From the NCBI GenBank assembly GCA_963745835.1, contig CAVUZH010000018.1, positions 224,001 to 288,000 on the forward strand: DNA of 64,000 bases, given 5' to 3'. The notes under the pieces were generated by a model. It was not told where the DNA came from, searched no databases, and worked only from the letters and a program-made list of their open reading frames with translations. This DNA comes from an uncultured delta proteobacterium. GTDB taxonomy: Bacteria; Desulfobacterota; Binatia; UBA9968. Positions 10,444 to 24,749 of the stretch are shown piece after piece. Made by a program: the position numbers and the translations under genes. Every line of letters starts with the position of its first letter. Position 1 is the stretch's first letter.

Positions 10444-10541
10444 GTTCAACAGTTCAAACCGCGCTTCGCGCTATTCAACGACAGGGCGTCGATTGGATCT
10501 GACGTTGAACGTTGAACTATTGAATAGCGAAGCGGTTGAAC
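10444..10541. repeat. GTTCAA/TTGAAC palindromic intergenic repeat
   Basis: TTCAAACCGCGCTTCGCGCTATTCAA pairs with TTGAATAGCGAAGCGGTTGAA; related sequence at about 11918-11958 and 40451-40620. Confidence 0.6.
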
Positions 10542-10543
10542 GG

Positions 10544-11002
10544 TTACTCGCCGGACCGTTTCGCCACGGCACCGCTTTTCGCATGGCGTTCGGTTAGCTC
10601 GATGACGTAGCCGTCCGGGTCCTTGATAAAGGCGTAGATATCCTTGCCGCCCGGCCGGTTCGGTCCCGGGCCGCTGACAAATTCCACCCCCTCTGCTTTG
10701 AGCTTGTCGCTGAGCTTGTAACAGTCCGATACGTAAAGCGCGATGTGACCCGTCCACTGTGCCAGAGGAGCTTTGCCTCGGCTCTCGCTCGATTCGATCA
10801 GCTCCAACGACGGGCCTTCATCCTCGCTGCCATAGCCTAAATAGCGCACCCGCTCGTTTCTATCGGGAACATCTCTGATGCGCTGGATGTCCATGCCGAG
10901 AAGGCGGGTGTAGAAATCGACCGTGCGATCCATGTTGCTCACGGGCAACATGGTATGCCGAATGTGGAGTGTGACGCCATCGATCGTGTTTTGTGGGAGC
11001 AT
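10544..11002 (-). CDS. VOC family protein (glyoxalase I-like)
   Basis: HTMLPV, FYTRLLGM, LELI, GHIAL, FIKDPDGYVIEL. Confidence 0.85.
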   Translation of the reverse strand: MLPQNTIDGVTLHIRHTMLPVSNMDRTVDFYTRLLGMDIQRIRDVPDRNERVRYLGYGSEDEGPSLELIESSESRGKAPLAQWTGHIALYVSDCYKLSDKLKAEGVEFVSGPGPNRPGGKDIYAFIKDPDGYVIELTERHAKSGAVAKRSGE

Positions 11003-11055
11003 GATATCTCCTCAGATCGTGTGGTGATATTCCCGGAGAATCTTCAATCTGGAAA

Positions 11056-11910
11056 CTACGATAACGCTTTGACGAAGGTGCGTTTCAGGAAAACCCCGAT
11101 CAAATGCCGTTTATAATCCGCGCCGCCTTCCAGATCGTCGACGGGATCCGCCGCCTGCGCCAAGGCCTCGGCGGCTTCCGCGAGCTGCCCTTCGACTTGC
11201 GCCTTCGACCCCTGCAGAAGCCGATTGGTTTTCTCTGATTGCGTCGGCACGGCACTGACACTGCCGACCACCGCGTTAGCTTGCTTAATGTTCTCGCCGT
11301 CGATATCAAGCACCAGCGCTAAGCCCAGTGTCGGCCGTTCCTTTAGCTGGTACTTTAAATAAGCGGCGCGTTGACTCGTGGTCGGGATCGGAACCTCGAT
11401 AGCTTCCAGGAGTTCCTCACTTGCCAGCGAAGTTTCGTATGAGCCGGTGATCAGTTTATCGATGGTCACGGTTCGCCTCTTCGACTTCGCCTGCAGATGA
11501 GCTTTGGCGCCGAGGGCCAAGAGTAACGTAGCTGGATCCGAATGGGGTTCGGCAAAACACAGATTTCCACCAAGCGTGCCGCTGGCGCGCACCCGGACAT
11601 TGGCGACATTCCTTTCCATCTGGGCCAGCACCGGCAGATGCTGTTGCACCAGGGGCGAGCGTTCAATGGCGCGATGAGTCGCCGTGCCGCCGATGAAGAG
11701 AGCGCCATCTTTTGATTCGATCTTGTTTAAACCCGGTATCGTTTTAACATCGACCAGGTGCTCGTACCGTAGCAGGTCGTGTTTCATCGCCAGAAGCAGC
11801 TCGGTGCCGCCAGCATAGAGCCGACCTTTTTCGCCGAACTCCGCGAGCATCTCAGAGGCTTCGGCGACACTCTTGGGTTGGTACACCGAAAAACGTCTTA
11901 ACGGCATCAT
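11056..11910 (-). CDS. xanthine dehydrogenase-family Mo-hydroxylase, FAD subunit (CoxM-like)
   Basis: AGGTELL, VRASGTLGGN, SDPAT. Confidence 0.9.
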   Translation of the reverse strand: MMPLRRFSVYQPKSVAEASEMLAEFGEKGRLYAGGTELLLAMKHDLLRYEHLVDVKTIPGLNKIESKDGALFIGGTATHRAIERSPLVQQHLPVLAQMERNVANVRVRASGTLGGNLCFAEPHSDPATLLLALGAKAHLQAKSKRRTVTIDKLITGSYETSLASEELLEAIEVPIPTTSQRAAYLKYQLKERPTLGLALVLDIDGENIKQANAVVGSVSAVPTQSEKTNRLLQGSKAQVEGQLAEAAEALAQAADPVDDLEGGADYKRHLIGVFLKRTFVKALS

Positions 11911-11984: not shown

Positions 11985-14273
11985 TTACTTTTTGGAAGCT
12001 TGTTTTTCTTTGAGTGCGCGCCAGACTTTCTCCGGAGTGAGCGGCGCCTGGCGGATGCGAACACCCGCGGCGCGGTCGACGGCGTTGGCGATGTTGGCGG
12101 CCATGGAATTCAATGACGCTTCGCCTCCGCCTTTGGCGCCGTAAGGGCCCACGCCGTCCTGGTTCTGCACCAGATGGAGCTCGACTTTTTTCGGCAAATC
12201 AGAAAAGCGCGGCAGGCGATAATCCAAAATAGATCCGTTCATCAGCTGGGAACCTTCATAGATCAGTTCTTCGAACAAACCGATTCCCATTCCCATGGTC
12301 GCGGCGCCGATATCTTGGCCTTCGGCCAAGGCCGGATTGATCGCCAACCCGACATCGCCGACCGTCGCCAGTTTCTCCATGGTAATTTTGCCGGTTTCCT
12401 CGTCAACCGAGATTTCGACACCGGTTGCGGCAGCTTCCCAGAATACCGGCAGAGCCGCGAACTTGCCCGACTTTCTAATGTAGGAACGGCCGATGACTTC
12501 GCCGTCCGGAAGCGCATAGAACTTGCTGATCACTTCCGACCAATTGAGCTGCGCTTCGCCGCAGCGCACGCCGCCACGAACTACCTGGATGTCTTCAACT
12601 TTCACTTTCAGGACGTCGGCGGCCATCACCACCATCTGCTGGATCGCTTCGCGGCTGGCTTCCAAAACAGCGCTTCCCATCAACGTGGTCGTGCGGCTGG
12701 CGCCAGTGGATCGATCGTAGGGGGTGATTGCCGTGTCCGATGAAACAACATTGACCTTGTCGAAATCGACACCCAACTCTTCCGCGGCAATTTGCGGAAT
12801 GACAGTGTGACTTCCCTGGCCGAGCTCGGTGCTGCCGGTCATGATCGTGACCGAACCATCGGCATGCACCCGCACCGCCGTCGACGTGAGCGGGTAAGCG
12901 CCGGCATCGCTGCCGGAGCAGGCAACGCCCCGCCCGTGGCCCTTTGGTAAAGGATCTCTCCAGCCAACCGCGTTTGCCGCGGTGTCGAGATCTTCTTTCA
13001 AGGTCCCATCGAAGGGGCGCATTCCGGGAAAAAATTCTTCACCTGGTTTCGCCGCATTCGCCAGGCGAAACTCGTAAGGATCTTTACCGATCTTAGCGGC
13101 GAGCTCGTCGATTTGCGATTCGCCGGGCAAAGTCACCTGTGCGCAGCCAAAACCCCGATACGAACTCGCCGGCACGGTATTGGTGTAAAGCGAGCAGTTT
13201 TCGATCAAGACATTCGGAATCGCGTAAGGACCGACGCAGCGGTTGCTCGACTTCTCGACCACAAGAGGGCTGTTTTCCGCATAAGCTCCGGTGTTCATGT
13301 AAATCTTCGCCTGTCGCGCGATGATTTTGCCGTTGGCATCCACTGCCGTGCGCATCCAGGTATAGGCGTCATCGCTGCGCGTGGTAAGCATCGCTTCCTC
13401 GATTGTCAGCTGCAGCTTCACCGGTCGCTTGGCTTTCCATGAACAGGCCGCTACCAGCGGCTCGATTTTCGTATACGACTTGCTACCGTAGCCGCCGCCG
13501 ACAAACGGCACGATCAAACGCACTTTGCTGACCGGCCGATTGAACACAGTCTTAAGGTCGTGTCGAACCATGAACGGATGCTGCGCCGACGAATAAATAT
13601 TGACCCCTTGATCGGTGACATCGGCAACGGCGACGTAGGCTTCCATCGCGTAGGCGTAGGTCATCGGAAAATAGTACTCGGCCTCGACGACAGCGGCAGC
13701 GCTCTTGAAAGCTTCGTCGACGTTGCCCCATCTCACTTCGTGTTTCTGGCAAACGTTGCTTCCCTTGCCTGCGGTAACTTCGCCCTCGAAACCACGTAGG
13801 GCGCCGGCCTCGAACTGTCTTTCGTGCAGCAGCGGAGCATCTTTCGCTAATGCCTCTTGCGGCGTGAACACCGCCGGGAGCTCCTGGTATTTCACATCGA
13901 TGAACTCGAGCGCTTCGAAAGCGGTGCGCTCATCTATGGCGACCACAGCAGCTACCGGCTCGCCGGCATAACGGACTTTATCAATCGCCAGCAATGGATG
14001 ATCCTTGACCGCATGGCCATAATAAGGGTTCAGCCCCTCGAGATCATTGCCGGTGACCACGCAGAATACTCCCGGTTGCGCGGCAGCTCGTGATGTATCG
14101 ATGGAAATGATCTTGGCGTGCGCATAGGGGCTGCGCAGCACTTTGGCGTAGGCCATGCCGATGAGCTTCAAGTCGGCCACATACTGGGCCTTTCCGGTGA
14201 CTTTTACACGGCCGTCGCGCCGCGGCACCGAATGATTGACGACATGAAAATCGTTTTTCTTCTCTGGGCTCAC
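11985..14273 (-). CDS. xanthine dehydrogenase-family molybdopterin subunit
   Basis: KVTGKAQY, GGGYGSK, SYRGFG, ELGQG, AKGGGE; GTG start. Confidence 0.92.
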   Translation of the reverse strand: MSPEKKNDFHVVNHSVPRRDGRVKVTGKAQYVADLKLIGMAYAKVLRSPYAHAKIISIDTSRAAAQPGVFCVVTGNDLEGLNPYYGHAVKDHPLLAIDKVRYAGEPVAAVVAIDERTAFEALEFIDVKYQELPAVFTPQEALAKDAPLLHERQFEAGALRGFEGEVTAGKGSNVCQKHEVRWGNVDEAFKSAAAVVEAEYYFPMTYAYAMEAYVAVADVTDQGVNIYSSAQHPFMVRHDLKTVFNRPVSKVRLIVPFVGGGYGSKSYTKIEPLVAACSWKAKRPVKLQLTIEEAMLTTRSDDAYTWMRTAVDANGKIIARQAKIYMNTGAYAENSPLVVEKSSNRCVGPYAIPNVLIENCSLYTNTVPASSYRGFGCAQVTLPGESQIDELAAKIGKDPYEFRLANAAKPGEEFFPGMRPFDGTLKEDLDTAANAVGWRDPLPKGHGRGVACSGSDAGAYPLTSTAVRVHADGSVTIMTGSTELGQGSHTVIPQIAAEELGVDFDKVNVVSSDTAITPYDRSTGASRTTTLMGSAVLEASREAIQQMVVMAADVLKVKVEDIQVVRGGVRCGEAQLNWSEVISKFYALPDGEVIGRSYIRKSGKFAALPVFWEAAATGVEISVDEETGKITMEKLATVGDVGLAINPALAEGQDIGAATMGMGIGLFEELIYEGSQLMNGSILDYRLPRFSDLPKKVELHLVQNQDGVGPYGAKGGGEASLNSMAANIANAVDRAAGVRIRQAPLTPEKVWRALKEKQASKK

Positions 14274-14482
14274 TACTTGGACTCCTTGCTCATCGCCTGA
14301 GCGGCCGGTTCAATGGGTGATTGATTACGTAGAATGTTTTTCTCTGCATTCACTTCTTCCGCGTCCCTATTCATCGCCTGGGCAGCGCGTTGAATGAGTG
14401 ACTGATAGACCACGTAGAAGTCGGTTTTTTCTCTGCGCTCATTTTTTCTCGCTTGCTCATCACCTGGGCCGCGCGTTGAATG
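14233..14482. repeat. three degenerate ~83-bp tandem copies of the S/L subunit gene junction
   Basis: Units at 14233-14315, 14316-14396 and 14397-14482 each contain TTTTTCT...CATC(G/A)CCTG...GTT(G/C)AATG. Confidence 0.8.
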
Positions 14483-14925
14483 GCGGCAACGATCGGCACG
14501 TAGCCGGTGCAGCGGCAGATATTTCCGTCCATATGATGAATTATTTCCTCGCGGCTCGGTGTCGGATTTTCATCCAGCAGCGCTTTGGCAGACATAATCA
14601 TGCCCGGTGTGCAGAAACCGCATTGGAAGGCAAAATCGTCGATAAAGGCCTGCTGAATTGGGTGGAGTGTGCCGTCGGGTTTTTCCAAGCCTTCAATCGT
14701 TGTGACGCTCTTACCCTGTGCTTCGTATGCTAGATACGTGCAGGCACTTACCGGCAGGTCGTTTACGAGAACCGTACAAGCGCCGCAAACCTGGACCTCA
14801 CAGGATATTTTTGTGCCGTTTAGATTGAGCTGGTTACGAAGAACTTCGGCGAGGGTTTCTTCGGCCTCGCATTCGATTTCAACGGGCTTGCCGTTGAGGT
14901 GAAAGTTCAGAGCGACATTTCTCAT
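14371..14925 (-). CDS. (2Fe-2S)-binding subunit (CoxS-like)
   Basis: CEVQVCGACTV; QCGFCTPG; GNICRCTGY. Confidence 0.92.
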   Translation of the reverse strand: MRNVALNFHLNGKPVEIECEAEETLAEVLRNQLNLNGTKISCEVQVCGACTVLVNDLPVSACTYLAYEAQGKSVTTIEGLEKPDGTLHPIQQAFIDDFAFQCGFCTPGMIMSAKALLDENPTPSREEIIHHMDGNICRCTGYVPIVAAIQRAAQVMSKREKMSAEKKPTSTWSISHSFNALPRR

Positions 14926-18938: not shown

Positions 18939-19229
18939 GGCAGTAATATATGACACCGTCCCGGCAACGCTGCAATCCACGCTCGGTGGTAATCGGTTCG
19001 AGCCAGTCTTGTTGAATCCGACTTGGCTCGGCGTCCGAAACGATAGCAGTTCAAGTCTGCTTTATTGACCCAATGTGGCACGGATCCTGACTCCGCCCGC
19101 AAATCGCCGGCAGGTATACAACGCTTCTTGGCGATTGCTCGTAGGCATTCTGGCCGTCGTCTGTTAGAGTTCACTGGCGAAAAAGTCAAATTTATGCTCT
19201 ATAAAGGAGTCTCTCCACCGTCTTCAAAC

Positions 19230-21632
19230 ATGGCAAAAGCAAAAAAAACCGGACGCGAAGTACACCCTCACCTGACCATACTAGAAGATATCAGCACGCT
19301 GATCACCCATTCTCACGATCTCCAAGACACCTTACAAAATATCGTTACAACCGTTCGCGACCGAATGGAGGCCGAGGTCTGTTCGATTTACATCCTCGAC
19401 CCGCAAAAGAAGCGCCTGACCTTGCGGGCAACCATGGGTTTAGATCCGGAATCCATCGGTAAAGTGTCGATGGCGATAGGGGAAGGGTTAACCGGTCTGG
19501 TGATCGAGCGCATGGAGCCGGTCATGGTAGTGGATGCGCTCGCGCACCCGCGCTACAGGTATTTCCCGGAAACCGGCGAAGAACGTTTTCACTCTTTCCT
19601 AGGCGTGCCGCTGTTCAACAACAAATCGCCGCTTGGCGTGCTTGTCGTTCAAACCTCGCGCCGGCGCCAATTCTCACGCGATGAAATCCGCTTGTTGATC
19701 ACCATCTCGGCTCAGGCTGCGAGTATTATCGTTCAAGCCCAGCTGGTGGAATCATTGCGCAACAAGGAACGCGAGCGCAAAGAATATCAGAAACGCATGG
19801 TCGATGCGCTGCGCAAGCTGCGCTCTTACGAGGGTCGCCGCCGCGAGAAGACATCGAAGAAAACGTCGCACAAGTGGCGCGGCCGTTTGGTTGGGCTTGC
19901 GGCATCGCCCGGATTTGGTCGGGGAAGGGCATTTGTTTTGAACCCGCGCATGGAACTCAGTGCGATTGAGAAAAAACGCGCTCGCAATCCGCAACGTGAA
20001 ATTGAAAGATTTCGCGGCGCGGTGGAGCGGGGCATCGAGCAAATAAACGTCGTCAAACAGAGAATGAGCAATCTGATCTCACGCGAGGAGGGCGCTATCT
20101 TCGATGTTTACCGGTTGATCCTCGAGGACCCGGCCATTATCCAGCAGATTGAAGCGCAAATCCGCAAAGAAAATTACGTTGCAGAATACGCCGTGCGGCT
20201 CGTCTTTGAGCAGTATTTAAGCTCGATATCGCAAATCCAAGACGAATATTTGAGAGAGCGAACCGGGGATGTTAAAGACGCGGCGCAGAGACTGTTAGAA
20301 AACCTTGCCGGGACACCCGATCAGCACATCGCCGTGCCGAGTGATGCGGTGCTGGTGGCTGAAGATCTTTCGCCCGCGGATCTGAGCATGCTTGAAGGCG
20401 ATCACTTTCGGGGCATCGTCCTGGCAACCGGCGGGGTAACGACGCATGCGTCAATTTTAGCCAAGTCGTTTGAGATTCCCAGTGTGGTCGCGGTCGAAGG
20501 GCTGATGGACATCGTGCATCAGGGAGATGCCGTCATCGTCGATGGCAATTCCGGTGTGCTTTACGTCAATCCGAATCCGGAAGTTGCCCGCGAATACGAT
20601 CGGCTCGAGCGCGACTATGCAGCGCTTAACCGCGAGCTCGAAGAATTGAAGGACGAGCCTGCCGAAACCATCGACGGTCACAGAGTTTCGCTCTACGCAA
20701 ACATCGGTCTCTTGAGCGATATTGCCTTCGCTCATCTTCATGGCGCCCAGGGGGTGGGCCTCTATCGAACCGAAATTCCGTTCTTAGCCCATCGCGATTT
20801 TCCCAGCGAAGAGGAACAGTACTCCTTATATAAGCGTGTGATCGAAGGCATGGCTGGCAAACCAGTAACGGTTCGGACCTTAGACATAGGCGCCGACAAG
20901 TATCCCTCCTATATGCGCAGCACCAAGGTGGAGCCGAATCCGTTTCTCGGTTGGCGCTCCATTCGAATCTCGCTCGACGTCGAAGAGATCTTTAAAACGC
21001 AGCTTCGTGCGATCCTGCGAGCAGGAACATTGGGGCGAGTTCGGCTTCTCATCCCGATGATCTCCAGCCTGGAAGAAGTCCTCAAAGTCAAGGAATTGTT
21101 GGCCGAGGCCAAAGATGAGCTGCAGCGAGAGTCCACTCCCTTCGACCTCAACATGGAGTTGGGGATCATGGTGGAAGTTCCGGCGGCGGTTCAACTCGCT
21201 GAGCGACTGCTGCGCGAAGTCGATTTTTTGAGCATTGGCACTAACGATTTGATCCAATACATCCTTGCGGTCGATCGCAGCAACCGCAAAGTGGCAAATC
21301 TTTATGAGCCGCTTCATCCCGCTGTTCTGGCTGCGCTTTACTCCACGATTCAGGCGGGAAAAAGAGACGGTAAAAGAGTCGGCATGTGCGGCGAGATGGC
21401 CGGCGATCCGATTTATGCGCTTGTGCTGCTCGGCATGGGTTTAGAAGAATTCAGTATGGGTTCGCTGTTCGTGCCTGTGGTTAAAAAAACCATCCGTTCG
21501 GTCACCTACGAAGCCGCCAAATCAATGGCGCGAATCGTTCTCGAGATGGATACCGCTGCCGAAATTAAGCGGTACTTGTTCGAGCGGATGCGAGAGCTGG
21601 GTATGGTCGAATTGATGGAGATGTATCATTAA
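19230..21632 (+). CDS. ptsP: GAF-containing phosphoenolpyruvate-protein phosphotransferase (EI-Ntr)
   Basis: N-terminal GAF domain; GGVTTHASIL phospho-His; GLYRTE, EPNPFLGWR, SIGTNDL, GMCGEMAGD. Confidence 0.93.
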   Translation: MAKAKKTGREVHPHLTILEDISTLITHSHDLQDTLQNIVTTVRDRMEAEVCSIYILDPQKKRLTLRATMGLDPESIGKVSMAIGEGLTGLVIERMEPVMVVDALAHPRYRYFPETGEERFHSFLGVPLFNNKSPLGVLVVQTSRRRQFSRDEIRLLITISAQAASIIVQAQLVESLRNKERERKEYQKRMVDALRKLRSYEGRRREKTSKKTSHKWRGRLVGLAASPGFGRGRAFVLNPRMELSAIEKKRARNPQREIERFRGAVERGIEQINVVKQRMSNLISREEGAIFDVYRLILEDPAIIQQIEAQIRKENYVAEYAVRLVFEQYLSSISQIQDEYLRERTGDVKDAAQRLLENLAGTPDQHIAVPSDAVLVAEDLSPADLSMLEGDHFRGIVLATGGVTTHASILAKSFEIPSVVAVEGLMDIVHQGDAVIVDGNSGVLYVNPNPEVAREYDRLERDYAALNRELEELKDEPAETIDGHRVSLYANIGLLSDIAFAHLHGAQGVGLYRTEIPFLAHRDFPSEEEQYSLYKRVIEGMAGKPVTVRTLDIGADKYPSYMRSTKVEPNPFLGWRSIRISLDVEEIFKTQLRAILRAGTLGRVRLLIPMISSLEEVLKVKELLAEAKDELQRESTPFDLNMELGIMVEVPAAVQLAERLLREVDFLSIGTNDLIQYILAVDRSNRKVANLYEPLHPAVLAALYSTIQAGKRDGKRVGMCGEMAGDPIYALVLLGMGLEEFSMGSLFVPVVKKTIRSVTYEAAKSMARIVLEMDTAAEIKRYLFERMRELGMVELMEMYH

Positions 21633-21672: not shown

Positions 21673-21723
21673 TTGATTTAGACGATGACGTGAGTTAAAT
21701 TTAATTTCGAACGATCGTTCGAA
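21673..21723 (+). promoter_or_regulatory. sigma70 promoter overlapped by a perfect 18-bp palindromic operator (PaaR/TetR-type)
   Basis: TTGATT-N17-TAAATT followed by TTCGAACGATCGTTCGAA (21706-21723). Confidence 0.7.
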
Positions 21724-21749
21724 CAGGCTCCTTCCGAAAGGATTAAACC

Positions 21750-22856
21750 ATGCAGAAAATCGCAAATTTCGATGATTGGATCGATTACTTCCGTGTCTGG
21801 CAAAAAGATATCGGCTATGACCCGGCACTGTTAGGCGATTACAAGTTTGAAACCAAGCTGGGAGAACTGCACAGCTCGGAGATTGAATTTGGCGACTTCA
21901 AGGGCCAACCGAAATGGCAACGAATCGGGCAAATACCGAATCAGTCGATTCGCGATGCGCTGATGAATTTGATCGTCTATCAGGGCGATACCGAATTCGC
22001 TTCGGTGGAACAGCAAAAAAACCTGCTCGACACCGCGCCCACGGAATACGACCGTAAAGCCCTGACCCGTGTAAACAGCGAAGAAATGCGCCACGGCTGG
22101 CAGATGTGTTACCTGCTCGTCAATTACTTCGGTGATTCAGGAAAATTGGAGGCGCGTAAACTGCTCGAGCGAAGAGCTTTCCGCGGTGACCGGCTACTGG
22201 GATCTTTCAATGCCCCGGTGAAAAACTGGCTGGACTTCTTTACCTATACGGAATTTGTCGATCGAGACGGCAAGTATCAGCTGACCATGCTAAGCCATTC
22301 GGCCTTTGCGCCGCTGGCTGAGAGCGTCACCGCAATGCTCAAGGAAGAGCACTTTCACATGTTTACAGGTCACACCGGACTCACCCGTGTGCTTCGCGCC
22401 GGGCAAATTCCGGTTGCCATCGTGCAAAAATATTTCAACAAATGGTTGTCCACCGCTTATGATCTATTTGGGACCGATCATTCATCCTCTGCCAACTGGT
22501 CGTATGTCTGGGGTCTGAAGGGAAGATACGATGAACATGAAGCGACGGTGGCGGCGGACAAGGACCGATTGAACGATTTGGCCCGCGACCATTACATGGC
22601 GGAAAGCTCAAAACTAATCGATCAGCTGAACCAGCTTATTCCGGAAGGACAGCCCAAGCTTTCAGCGCCGGATTTGAAATTCAACCGCTCCATCGGTGAG
22701 CACGTCGGTAAAACTTTCAGCGTTACCGGTGAACTCTTGTCGCCGGAGGCATACAAGAAGCACTTAACCGAAGCCTTGCCGACAGCGGAAGACGAGCAAC
22801 TACTCAACGACATCATGAAAGGCAAGGAGTGGGTTTCGCAGATTCAAATGAACTAA
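21750..22856 (+). CDS. BoxB-like di-iron aryl-CoA epoxidase subunit (PaaA/PaaC/BoxB family)
   Basis: QGDTEFASVEQQ, EEMRH, DRDGKYQL and EEHFH correspond to the BoxB di-iron ligand motifs. Confidence 0.85.
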   Translation: MQKIANFDDWIDYFRVWQKDIGYDPALLGDYKFETKLGELHSSEIEFGDFKGQPKWQRIGQIPNQSIRDALMNLIVYQGDTEFASVEQQKNLLDTAPTEYDRKALTRVNSEEMRHGWQMCYLLVNYFGDSGKLEARKLLERRAFRGDRLLGSFNAPVKNWLDFFTYTEFVDRDGKYQLTMLSHSAFAPLAESVTAMLKEEHFHMFTGHTGLTRVLRAGQIPVAIVQKYFNKWLSTAYDLFGTDHSSSANWSYVWGLKGRYDEHEATVAADKDRLNDLARDHYMAESSKLIDQLNQLIPEGQPKLSAPDLKFNRSIGEHVGKTFSVTGELLSPEAYKKHLTEALPTAEDEQLLNDIMKGKEWVSQIQMN

Positions 22857-22915
22857 GCGGATGCATTCCACCCTGGGTTTGATGCTGCCGCCAGTTGCAA
22901 CATAAGGAGGGAGCA

Positions 22916-23239
22916 GTGAAGCGGATGTGTCTCGTCTGTCAGAATATCGATTGTAAATCTCGGGGTTCCGAGCAGCTGATGGGCGAGCTCGAGAAGCGGG
23001 TTGCGGCGAAAGGGTTGAATGATGTCGAGGTAAAGCCCTACATGTGCTTCGGCGCATGCCAAGAGGGTCCCAACATCGTTCTTTACCCTGAAAAAAGCTG
23101 GTATGCGAATGTCAAAGTCGACGACTTGGACGAGATCACTGAACACATTGCCGGCGGACCTCACGTCAAACGCTTGGACACCATCGATGCTTCGCTCAAA
23201 GAACTGATTTACCAACTTCTAGATACGGGGGTCGTTTAA
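22916..23239 (+). CDS. thioredoxin-like [2Fe-2S] ferredoxin (NuoE-like)
   Basis: CQNIDC...CFGACQEGP; AGGAGG RBS before GTG. Confidence 0.85.
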   Translation: MKRMCLVCQNIDCKSRGSEQLMGELEKRVAAKGLNDVEVKPYMCFGACQEGPNIVLYPEKSWYANVKVDDLDEITEHIAGGPHVKRLDTIDASLKELIYQLLDTGVV

Positions 23240-23242
23240 CCG

Positions 23243-24502
23243 ATGGAAGGCATTCTTTTCCCCCATGGAATCCCTGAGGGTCGAGAAGAATTAAGTGATT
23301 ACCGCGGCCGCGGTGGCTATGAGGCATTAGCTCGTGCGATCAGGATGCCGGCCGAGGATATCGTCAAGCAAGTCTCTGACGCGGGGCTCCGCGGCAGGGG
23401 CGGCGCGGGATTCCCCACCGGCAAAAAATGGGAGCTTACTCGCGAGGCGCCAGAGCAAACCCGTTATCTCATCCTGAACGGTGGAGAAGATGAACCCGGC
23501 AGCAAAAAAGATCGCGTGCTGATGGAGAATGTTCCTCATCTGGTGATTGAGGGCGTGATCCTATCCGCTTACGCGATTGGCGCGGAGAAAGCATATCTTT
23601 ACATCAATGCTCAGTACGAGACCGCGATTAAAAGAATTGCCGACGCTTTGTCTGAAGCAAAGAGTGAGGCCTATTGGGGTGAAAATATTCTCGGCAGCAG
23701 TTTCAGCCTAGATATTGAAATTGTCCCAGCGCCGCACAACTATGTGGCCGGCGAGGATACGGCGGTCATCGAGGTCATCGAAGGTAAGAAAGCTTGGCCC
23801 AGGGAGAAGCCGCCGTTCCCGGTAACGGTAGGACTCTTTGGCAAACCGACGTCGGTGAACAACGTTGAAACTCTCGCCAACGTCGCTCCGATTCTTTTGC
23901 ATGGCGCCGACTGGTATCGAAAATTTGGCACCGCCGAAAGCCCCGGGACCATGATCTTTGCTCTCGACGAAGACGTGAACCGGCCCGGCGTTTATGAGCT
24001 AGAGTTCGGCACGCCGCTGCGTTATCTGATCGAAGAGTGCGGCGGCGGCTTGAAGAGTGGTAAAAAGATCAAAGCGGTTATGCCAGCCTCGCCCTCGTGC
24101 GCCTTTCTACCGCCGGAGAAAATCGACACGCCGCTTGACCACAACTCTATGCGCGAGGCCGGCGCCGGCATTGGTTGCGGCGTTATCCGCCTGGTCGGCG
24201 AAGGCGAATGTATCGTTGAAGAAGTCCTTGGCATCGCCGAATTTTTCGCCACCGAGTCCTGCGGCCAGTGCCCGGCGTGCCGCATGGAAACCAGTACGCT
24301 AGCGATGATGATGAAGAAAGTGCAGCAAGGGCAGGGCGGCAAACCGATCCTTGAACAGTTTGGCAAGATTTTGGCCTTCAACAAAGGCAAAGGATTTTGT
24401 AATCTGATCAATATGCCCGGTCCGCCGATTGAAAGCGCGCTCAAACTCTTTCCCGGTGATTTCGAAGCCCACCTGACTACCGGGAAATGCCCGGTAAACT
24501 AG
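23243..24502 (+). CDS. NuoF-like FMN/[4Fe-4S] NAD(P)H diaphorase
   Basis: GLRGRGGAGFPTGKKW, EPGSKKDR, YVAGEDTA, NNVET, ESCGQCPACR...C. Confidence 0.9.
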   Translation: MEGILFPHGIPEGREELSDYRGRGGYEALARAIRMPAEDIVKQVSDAGLRGRGGAGFPTGKKWELTREAPEQTRYLILNGGEDEPGSKKDRVLMENVPHLVIEGVILSAYAIGAEKAYLYINAQYETAIKRIADALSEAKSEAYWGENILGSSFSLDIEIVPAPHNYVAGEDTAVIEVIEGKKAWPREKPPFPVTVGLFGKPTSVNNVETLANVAPILLHGADWYRKFGTAESPGTMIFALDEDVNRPGVYELEFGTPLRYLIEECGGGLKSGKKIKAVMPASPSCAFLPPEKIDTPLDHNSMREAGAGIGCGVIRLVGEGECIVEEVLGIAEFFATESCGQCPACRMETSTLAMMMKKVQQGQGGKPILEQFGKILAFNKGKGFCNLINMPGPPIESALKLFPGDFEAHLTTGKCPVN

Positions 24503-24628
24503 CAGGCTGCTGAAAAAGCCTCATAGGCTTCGTTGCACTGCGCCCGCCTCGCTTTGCCGTACTGAAGCGTGCGCCTCAGCTCTTCGGACTTCGCGCGCCT
24601 TGCATCTGAGATCTTTTTGAGCAGCCTG
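24503..24628. mobile_element. MITE family A copy
   Basis: TIRs CAGGCTGCTGAAAAAG / CTTTTTGAGCAGCCTG, directly after the CTAG that contains the upstream stop codon. Confidence 0.8.
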
Positions 24629-24749
24629 CAAAGCAAAGTTTTTAAACTGCTAAACTCACCGGTTTCATTTCCGCCAGCGCCAATTCAGGTTGACGGTTCA
24701 AGTAACCCCTTGATAGGATCTGCCTCGGTTTAATTACGAGGTACAAAAC

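Follow-up and report, generated by a model that had tools for sequence, protein, structure and literature searches.

The window analysed here is a stretch of 64,000 nt from the genome of an uncultured delta proteobacterium of the Binatia (assembly GCA_963745835.1, contig CAVUZH010000018.1, positions 224,001 to 288,000, forward strand). Three adjacent genes in it, encoding a short BoxB-like protein, a ferredoxin and a flavoprotein, were interpreted as a single operon under repressor control, coding for an NADH-dependent di-iron oxygenase of three components whose substrate would be an aromatic acyl-CoA, likeliest benzoyl-CoA or a close analogue. A probability of roughly 0.6 was assigned to this interpretation. 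Shown are the gene content, the motifs of cofactor ligands, the BoxB fold of a model, the conservation of linkage and operator, and the coverage of the genes by RNA-library contigs; how electrons travel, what the substrate and product are, and which protein is the repressor are inferred. The operon is bounded by a single conserved promoter/operator before the first gene and by a dispersed repeat after the third. Its coding features are:

21750..22856, + strand: predicted short BoxB-like di-iron oxygenase, 368 aa, ATG start
22916..23239, + strand: thioredoxin-like [2Fe-2S] ferredoxin, 107 aa from GTG 22916 (the likelier start)
22895-23239, + strand: longest ferredoxin open reading frame, 114 aa from TTG 22895
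23243..24502, + strand: NuoF/HydB-type NADH-binding flavoprotein with flavin mononucleotide (FMN) and a [4Fe-4S] cluster, 419 aa, ATG start

A unit of a 368-aa BoxB-like gene, a ferredoxin gene and a NuoF-like gene with a 3-nt gap had been proposed in the original prediction, made by a model from the letters and open reading frames alone, and the open reading frames and family matches agree with it: the ferredoxin stop ends at 23239 and the flavoprotein ATG is at 23243. The ferredoxin start was placed at GTG 22916 because this codon lies five bases 3' of AAGGAGGGAG, read from the sequence as a strong ribosome-binding site. No further nuo, hydrogenase or formate-dehydrogenase gene was present among the 17 open reading frames scanned (11985-33013), as the prediction had also stated for the adjacent genes.

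In the proposed mechanism, NADH would reduce the FMN of the NuoF/HydB-type flavoprotein and electrons would pass via its [4Fe-4S] cluster to the [2Fe-2S] ferredoxin, which would reduce the di-iron centre of the short BoxB-like protein. The reduced di-iron protein would activate O2 and epoxidise, or otherwise oxygenate, the ring of a CoA thioester, and an aryl-CoA-sensing repressor of the TetR/PaaR type would bind a palindrome over the transcription start. To our knowledge, di-iron aryl-CoA epoxidases are known with two kinds of reductase only, BoxA and PaaE. An FMN flavoprotein of the hydrogenase/complex I type working with a thioredoxin-like ferredoxin would, if the interpretation is true, be a third kind, probably using NADH and not NADPH. 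A full-text literature search (subscription journals lay outside it) returned no account of a NuoF/HydB-type flavoprotein serving a di-iron oxygenase, in accord with the earlier claim that the architecture was undescribed, and the three-gene unit probably represents a route of electron supply to a BoxB-type oxygenase that has not been described.

The oxygenase and its predicted electron donor

The product of the first gene matched PF05138 (PaaA_PaaC) at 48.9 bits, above the cut-off of 28.5. Its best solved relative was BoxB of Azoarcus evansii (3per_A, 1.2e-51), with PaaA far behind (8.6e-07). Identity to BoxB was ~50% over the ligand helices. The iron ligands of A. evansii BoxB given in PMC5489048 (E120, E150, H153, D211, E240 and H243) aligned with E82, E112, H115, D171, E200 and H203 of the window protein, which upholds the claim that all di-iron ligand motifs are present. 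For the analysis of conservation, 79 family members were aligned, drawn from the window and from 80 related loci, of which two had no usable open reading frame, and all six ligands were invariant (79/79). The paper cited for the ligands also names Q116, T119, S123, F193, F203, F206 and T210 as second-shell or benzoyl-pocket residues that orient benzoyl-CoA and describes a hydrogen bond from Q116 to it; the first five of these correspond to Q78, T81, S85, F153 and F163 of the window protein, which are likewise invariant (79/79).

Characterised BoxB is about 100 aa longer, as the prediction had it (canonical members have 465-481 aa), and the shortfall is made up of seven scattered deletions with no domain missing. 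An AlphaFold2 model of the window protein (pLDDT 94, pTM 0.91) had as its top Foldseek match 3pm5_D, a BoxB with bound benzoyl-CoA (TM 0.90 by query, 0.71 by target, E 1.6e-23), compared with a TM of 0.56 to PaaA. On a quick tree in which several rows had long branches, representatives of canonical BoxB were split from the short family by a long branch (SH-aLRT 99). The short-BoxB family comprised 5020 proteins at E <=0.001 among 8000 candidates scored, and at least 592 matching stretches in a one-genome-per-species collection.

BoxAB of Azoarcus/Aromatoleum evansii (3PER, 3PM5, 3PF7, 3Q1G) shares with the window protein the single-subunit di-iron fold, the six ligands and 5 of 7 pocket residues, but the window protein is the shorter by ~100 aa, scores below the family cut-off and falls in a separate clade, and its genome has neither BoxA nor BoxC, the proposed donor being a NuoF/HydB-type FMN protein with a separate [2Fe-2S] ferredoxin. 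The phenylacetyl-CoA 1,2-epoxidase PaaABC(D)E is alike in PF05138 and, as predicted here, in di-iron oxygenation of an aryl-CoA with NAD(P)H electrons passed through Fe-S clusters; the match is weak, however (42.8 bits to the PaaA model, TM 0.56), and no gene for PaaB, PaaC or PaaE stands beside the window gene.

The ferredoxin matched PF01257 (31.6 bits, cut-off 24.8) in the C-terminal thioredoxin-like half only (profile 65-143 of 145). It fell below the cut-offs of the NuoE model TIGR01958 (32.5 vs 142.4 bits, profile 67-145 of 148) and of the named ferredoxin equivalogs (53 vs 150). Cysteines C8, C13, C44 and C48 (CX4C...CX3C) were invariant and the C-terminal tail IYQLLD(T/A)G was conserved in 23 of 23 aligned relatives. 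The best solved matches were the N-terminal domain of HydB (7q4v_B residues 7-92, 2.9e-12) and an Aquifex ferredoxin (1f37, 3.3e-11). The Pfam match and the four cysteines place it with thioredoxin-like [2Fe-2S] ferredoxins of the Aquifex Fd4/Clostridium type.

The flavoprotein matched PF01512, PF10531 and PF10589 (153.7, 31.9 and 58.5 bits), each above its cut-off. Over its full length (12-409 of 410) it scored 414.6 bits with the NuoF model TIGR01959, under the cut-off of 558.65, and its best solved matches were NfnB (9n5u_B, 355.8 bits), HydB (7p5h_B, 339.8 bits) and Thermus Nqo1 (2fug_1, 331.9 bits). Its translation contains the stretches GGAGFPTGKKW, GEDEPG and ESCGQCPAC, which we take to serve FMN, NADH and the cluster, respectively.

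Judged by these profile and structure matches, the ferredoxin is not NuoE, because the N-terminal half of NuoE is missing and, among solved structures, the HydB N-terminal domain matches best, and the flavoprotein is not the NuoF of complex I. Because the best solved matches are NfnB/HydB and the HydB N-terminal domain, the pair is more like a minimal HydB/HoxF-type diaphorase split in two than like NuoE with NuoF. With HydB (7Q4V, 7P5H), NfnB (9N5U) and HoxF-type diaphorases the likeness extends to gene order, the domains of HydB running as the window genes do, ferredoxin and then flavoprotein. The window parts are separate proteins, however, and the flavoprotein (419 vs about 600 aa) has no counterpart of the ferredoxin domains at the HydB C-terminus; the two are linked to an oxygenase, with no partner of the hydrogenase, Nfn or formate dehydrogenase kind nearby. 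NuoE/NuoF of complex I (Nqo2/Nqo1) are alike in the FMN, NADH and [4Fe-4S] domains and in the thioredoxin-like CX4C...CX3C fold of the ferredoxin, but both window proteins are under the NuoF/NuoE cut-offs, the ferredoxin has no NuoE N-terminal half and there are no nuo neighbours. The original prediction had a complex I diaphorase module recruited as donor; the donor role is supported, and 'complex I module' is better replaced by 'NuoF/HydB-type diaphorase'.

The true complex I nuoF of this genome lies elsewhere on the same contig (564.9 bits), and there is a third NuoF-like gene. In the true nuoF (G000:C18:193354-194581, G000 being the window's genome), model positions 2-367 match a frame of 402 aa and positions 338-410 an overlapping one of 509 aa; a frameshift or an error of assembly may have caused this, or a downstream gene may be fused to it.

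Profile searches of the genome (97.1% complete, 9.3% contamination) found no BoxA (TIGR03224; best 32.6 bits vs cut-off 459.2) and no match for PaaE, as expected if neither boxA nor paaE serves the enzyme. According to PMC4498308, BoxA is an NADPH/FAD protein with two [4Fe-4S] clusters, said to be unlike PaaE or typical monooxygenase reductases, and PaaE is a class IA FAD/[2Fe-2S] reductase. The prediction, which had BoxA reduce BoxB and PaaE reduce PaaABC, was loose in calling both reductases FNR-type, since BoxA with its two [4Fe-4S] clusters and FAD is said to be unlike PaaE. A complex prediction for the BoxB-like protein with the ferredoxin gave a median of 0.24 (runs 0.24, 0.43 and 0.08) against a mark of 0.32 and speaks neither for nor against binding.

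Linkage, distribution and the probable operator

Eighty loci related to the window gene were kept, 30 orthologous (69-91% identity) and 50 from a sister clade (58-65% identity). The orthologous loci came from metagenome-assembled genomes labelled Binatia, 'Deltaproteobacteria' and a few other phyla, and formed a clade on the quick tree (SH-aLRT 92). A ferredoxin gene was directly downstream in 29 of these 30 and a NuoF-like gene too in 28; the two loci without a complete unit (L018 and L039) end at a contig edge, which leaves the unit intact in 28 of 28 complete loci. The linkage on which the original prediction staked its case is thus conserved. Neither of the computational checks named with that prediction as able to refute it, on linkage and on a boxA ortholog, did so. 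In a reverse test, metagenome contigs were searched with the flavoprotein and gave 80 loci. All three at >=60% identity carried BoxB-like and ferredoxin genes upstream, and none of the 77 at 38-47% identity carried a BoxB-like gene; those 77 are generic NuoF genes that the universal FMN motif brought in, which leaves only the three as informative.

The 50 sister loci, mostly from Acidobacteriota, have no ferredoxin and NuoF-like genes, with the exceptions of L076 (ferredoxin only) and L084 (fragments). The L084 fragments (10448-11813) resemble the ferredoxin at 52% and the flavoprotein's C-terminal part at 55%, are in broken frames after an HdrD-like gene at a locus that also has genes like those of 4-hydroxybenzoyl-CoA reductase (Hcr), and may be a decayed copy or the product of poor assembly. 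G306, the genome of L076, belongs to an order of Terriglobia that was sampled in 14 genomes. An unlinked NuoF-like ortholog (53-57% identity) was found in 10 of the 14 and a BoxB-like gene in 10; both were present in nine, one only in two and neither in three, the last being among the smallest assemblies. A ferredoxin gene followed the BoxB-like gene at 9 of 11 loci and preceded the unlinked NuoF-like gene at 5 of 9, and by our own reading of the comparison the window ferredoxin resembles the NuoF-linked type. The arrangement fits an assembly, in the present clade, of the chain from flavoprotein through ferredoxin to oxygenase out of two modules.

Two features were placed upstream of the first gene:

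21673..21701, + strand: putative sigma-70-type promoter (-35 TTGATT 21673-21678, 17-nt spacer, -10 TAAATT 21696-21701)
21706..21723, no strand assigned: perfect 18-bp palindrome TTCGAACGATCGTTCGAA, probable repressor operator, covering the expected transcription start

The putative promoter is our own reading of the sequence; a consensus promoter scan did not list it, as 8 of 12 positions match and the scan needs 9. Upstream of the first gene in most of the 30 orthologous loci, a TTGATTT/TTGACTT box occupies the corresponding position. The palindrome lies between promoter and ribosome-binding site, 37-49 nt (once 64) before the start codon across the orthologous loci, and is conserved with <=2 mismatches in 22 of the 30 (11 exact) and with 3-4 mismatches in six, in flanks that have diverged. 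It is missing from two, of which one is a contig that begins inside the site and the other is without any. In the 7.28-Mb genome it is the sole site with <=1 mismatch in 14 core positions, and no second strong operator site that would indicate a regulon was found there.

Within the palindrome, CGAACGATCGTTCG fits CNAACGNNCGTTNG, which PMC9493321 and PMC6651687 give as the consensus of PaaR, the phenylacetyl-CoA-responsive TetR repressor of Thermus thermophilus; in fitting this TetR-type consensus the palindrome is a point of likeness to the PaaABC(D)E system. All 14 sister-clade operons headed by a TetR gene have the operator core TCGAACG-NN-CGTTCGA, placed 11-127 nt upstream of the aligned TetR start, and only in that clade does a TetR gene adjoin the operator. 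A TetR/PaaR-type protein is, by this likeness, the presumed repressor of the present operon.

The palindrome also resembles what we take to be the TCGAAC-N4-GTTCGA type of LexA box. Its identity as a LexA box was rejected: the single lexA promoter of the genome (gene at G000:C14, 15217-15813, minus strand) carries a different palindrome, TACTGAAAATATATTCAGTA, presumably of the E. coli-like CTG-N10-CAG type, and the best TCGAAC site at recA has 2 mismatches and lies ~290 nt upstream.

Between 21 and 25% of the words sampled from the region were present in each of six soil metatranscriptome runs. Four of these runs, from four studies, yielded contigs that cover the three genes with a likeness of >=90%. 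One such contig of 2414 nt spans 21705-24087 and both gene junctions, and others bridge each junction singly. These contigs, assembled from relatives, are compatible with co-transcription.

Substrate and alternative readings

Benzoyl-CoA or a close analogue appears the likeliest substrate because of the contexts of the sister-clade genes together with the shared pocket and the shared operator. The Acidobacteriota sister operons encode an oxygenase 58-65% identical to that of the window, with the same ligands and pocket, and have the same operator core; they differ in encoding hydratases, an aldehyde dehydrogenase (ALDH) and an Hcr-like enzyme, and in having no ferredoxin or NuoF-like genes, and 10 of 10 of their genomes checked have no flavoprotein ortholog. 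About half of the sister loci are operons of the order TetR-ECH-(ALDH)-UDG-ECH-BoxB-like-ECH, where ECH is an enoyl-CoA hydratase and UDG a uracil-DNA glycosylase. A three-subunit molybdenum enzyme is encoded beside the BoxB-like gene in 9 of 50 sister loci, following it except in L084, where it precedes, and a 3-hydroxyacyl-CoA dehydrogenase gene is near it in 8 of 50. In L063 the large subunit of the molybdenum enzyme scored 977.9 bits with 4-hydroxybenzoyl-CoA reductase alpha (cut-off 994.55) from an open reading frame ~20 N-terminal residues short, and the other two subunits scored 331 and 167 bits, both under their cut-offs. The flanking hydratase of L043 resembles PaaG and oxepin-CoA hydrolase at scores below their cut-offs, and L076 has a divergent BzdR/BoxR-type regulator (NF006015, 315.5 bits vs cut-off 204). 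The other half of the sister loci lie among genes for 3-ketoacyl-ACP synthase III (KAS III), a beta-barrel protein, a CBM9-like protein and MutY, a housekeeping-like setting. A 136-aa open reading frame before the sister genes ('Cluster 8') was discarded as spurious, having a high-GC frame composition and no Pfam match.

The window's genome has two benzoate-CoA ligase genes above the cut-off of 375 (794 and 588 bits). Subunit B of class I benzoyl-CoA reductase was not found in it; two AOR-family genes are present and may include that of a class II enzyme (BamB). Orthologs of the sister-clade operon genes were sought in the same genome and only one hydratase matched at 60% (C3:25114-25890), the Hcr-like enzyme having no ortholog there (best 37%). 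This hydratase, 60% identical to the first hydratase of the sister operons, lies beside an aldehyde dehydrogenase gene (C3:23344-25890, L220), possibly as an unlinked piece of the lower pathway.

A wider proposal is put forward tentatively, with the odds somewhat against it: the unit would be a self-contained, NADH-driven benzoyl-CoA (aryl-CoA) epoxidase that replaces BoxAB in Binatia-like and other abundant uncultured soil bacteria, joined from two modules that are still apart in some Terriglobia (oxygenase with ferredoxin, and ferredoxin with NuoF/HydB-type flavoprotein). The epoxide would be handled by another enzyme, because these genomes have no BoxC, and the short-BoxB family with its alternative donors would mark a widespread aerobic aromatic-acid route, one that marker-based annotation misses. 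The family occurs in soil phyla with few or no cultures, and its function bears on the turnover of plant-derived aromatic acids in soil. The conserved operator offers a handle for finding the inducer, and the three proteins are small, soluble and easily expressed and assayed.

A number of observations weigh against the aryl-CoA oxygenase operon as interpreted here. For the oxygenase, the best NCBIfam match was the BoxB model TIGR03225 at 245.8 bits, about half the cut-off of 499.1, and no match to that model above cut-off was found anywhere in the genome by whole-genome profile search. Two pocket positions have changed, F206 to Y in 76 of 79 aligned relatives and T210 to V/I in 79 of 79. BoxC (TIGR03222), which PMC4498308 reports as needed for relief of BoxB product inhibition, was not found in the genome (best 71.7 vs 712.3 bits). 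By its score, and with BoxA and BoxC both missing from the genome, the BoxB-like protein falls, as far as profiles can tell, outside the BoxB equivalog. The genes that adjoin the operon include none for a hydratase, an aldehyde dehydrogenase or a ligase, and the conserved neighbours of the orthologous loci are housekeeping-like (ptsP is kept upstream in 21 of 30, and the gene for Leu/Phe-tRNA protein transferase is another).

On the side of linkage and regulation, an ortholog of the flavoprotein is missing from 15 of 15 sister-clade genomes checked (best NuoF matches 39-42%), because of which the NuoF/HydB-type donor is, on gene content, one of several in a short-BoxB family that does not need the flavoprotein. 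In a sample of the window's phylum the oxygenase was present in only 3 of 301 genomes, and the operon is therefore patchily distributed and perhaps transferred. The co-occurrence counts in the order of G306 are confounded by kinship and assembly size, and in G306 itself the ferredoxin/flavoprotein pair stands alone between pfk and polA, because of which the pair may have a general diaphorase role. The loose PaaR consensus occurs in the genome no more often than by chance (8 sites vs 7.9 expected). The only TetR gene of the genome that resembles the sister-clade TetR (C16:368282-368845, 41% identity) has 5 mismatches in its best nearby site, and TetR homologs in 7 of 7 other operon-bearing genomes (40-44% identity) have best nearby sites with 3-5. 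For the RNA-library contigs, DNA carry-over is possible and a single transcript is not proven.

Several of these points suit an enzyme of the same three-component architecture with another substrate, a substituted or heteroaromatic aryl-CoA or a non-aromatic acyl-CoA, for which hydroxylation or desaturation would be possible. The halved BoxB score, the substitutions at F206 and T210, the lack of BoxC, the seven loop deletions relative to BoxB and the ~20 sister loci that neighbour KAS III, beta-barrel protein and MutY genes in place of aromatic-pathway genes would all be in keeping with it. Against this stand the invariance of Q78, which aligns with the glutamine that bonds benzoyl-CoA, and of both phenylalanines, the links of the sister clade to an Hcr-like enzyme and a BzdR/BoxR-type regulator, which point to benzoyl-CoA, and a genome with benzoate-CoA ligases and no other recognised dearomatising enzyme among those searched. 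On balance another substrate is unlikely.

A non-catabolic unit, with a di-iron protein that would draw on NADH to reduce O2, peroxide or an epoxide for detoxification or stress relief, perhaps in protection from DNA damage, is quite improbable. It would agree with the housekeeping-like neighbours and with a computational study that proposes that BoxB can deoxygenate its own epoxide (PMC5489048). DNA glycosylase genes also lie by the sister short-BoxB genes (L043-L092): 16 of 50 loci have a UDG/Mug-like gene within the TetR-ECH operon, and 17 of 50 have MutY immediately downstream of the BoxB-like gene. To connect arene-oxide chemistry with the protection of DNA is purely speculative. The palindrome, however, is not the LexA box of this genome, whose lexA promoter carries TACTGAAAATATATTCAGTA, the pocket residues of a CoA-ester oxygenase are conserved, and the operator is common to aryl-CoA catabolic operons. 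That the ferredoxin and flavoprotein are a general NADH:ferredoxin diaphorase merely adjoining a BoxB-like protein with another donor, as the solitary pair in G306, the 15 sister-clade genomes with oxygenase and no flavoprotein ortholog, and the only transient BoxA-BoxB interaction (PMC4498308) would allow, is very improbable in view of the adjacency in 28 of 28 complete loci over 69-91% protein identity, the linkage of all three close metagenome relatives of the NuoF-like protein to an oxygenase, the one conserved operator before gene 1 with a 3-nt gap between genes 2 and 3, and the same-subfamily ferredoxin after the oxygenase at 9 of 11 loci with an unlinked flavoprotein.

Neighbouring sequences and related loci

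Directly upstream of the operon and on the same strand is a ptsP-type gene for a GAF-domain enzyme I (window 19065-21632, +; NF008283, 626.6 bits). A functional tie between ptsP and the operon is not evident, and the operon has its own promoter and operator.

Directly after the NuoF-like gene lies an element of ~135 bp with terminal inverted repeats (GCAGGCTGCTGAAAAAG ... CTTTTTGAGCAGCCTGC; window 24500-24632). The same element is also found near window 49076 and 51480, and the genome contains 42 copies of its 38-nt core at <=6 mismatches. Contigs from the RNA libraries of several studies run into unrelated sequence at the edges of the element. It looks like a dispersed repeat of the kind of miniature inverted-repeat transposable elements (MITE) or repetitive extragenic palindromes (REP).

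Further upstream, the molybdenum and [2Fe-2S] subunits of a xanthine-dehydrogenase-family enzyme are encoded on the minus strand (window 11985-14925). The large subunit was rejected as an Hcr ortholog, as it scored only 517.8 bits with its best NCBIfam match, 4-hydroxybenzoyl-CoA reductase alpha (cut-off 994.55), near its XdhA scores.

The 794-bit benzoate-CoA ligase gene heads an operon elsewhere in the genome (G000:C25:44000-50400, L191) that continues with genes for a periplasmic binding protein, two permeases and two ATPases, a branched-chain-type ABC transporter, and then a haem-oxygenase-like iron enzyme.

A second short BoxB-like paralog (G000:C14:394852-395937; L012:10841-11968), 375 aa long and 56% identical to the window protein, has no ferredoxin or NuoF-like genes with it. 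It is followed by a DksA-like zinc-finger gene, with a sigma-54 activator near, and 5 kb upstream of it is a 269-aa PaaA-like gene with hemerythrin and DUF6448 genes.

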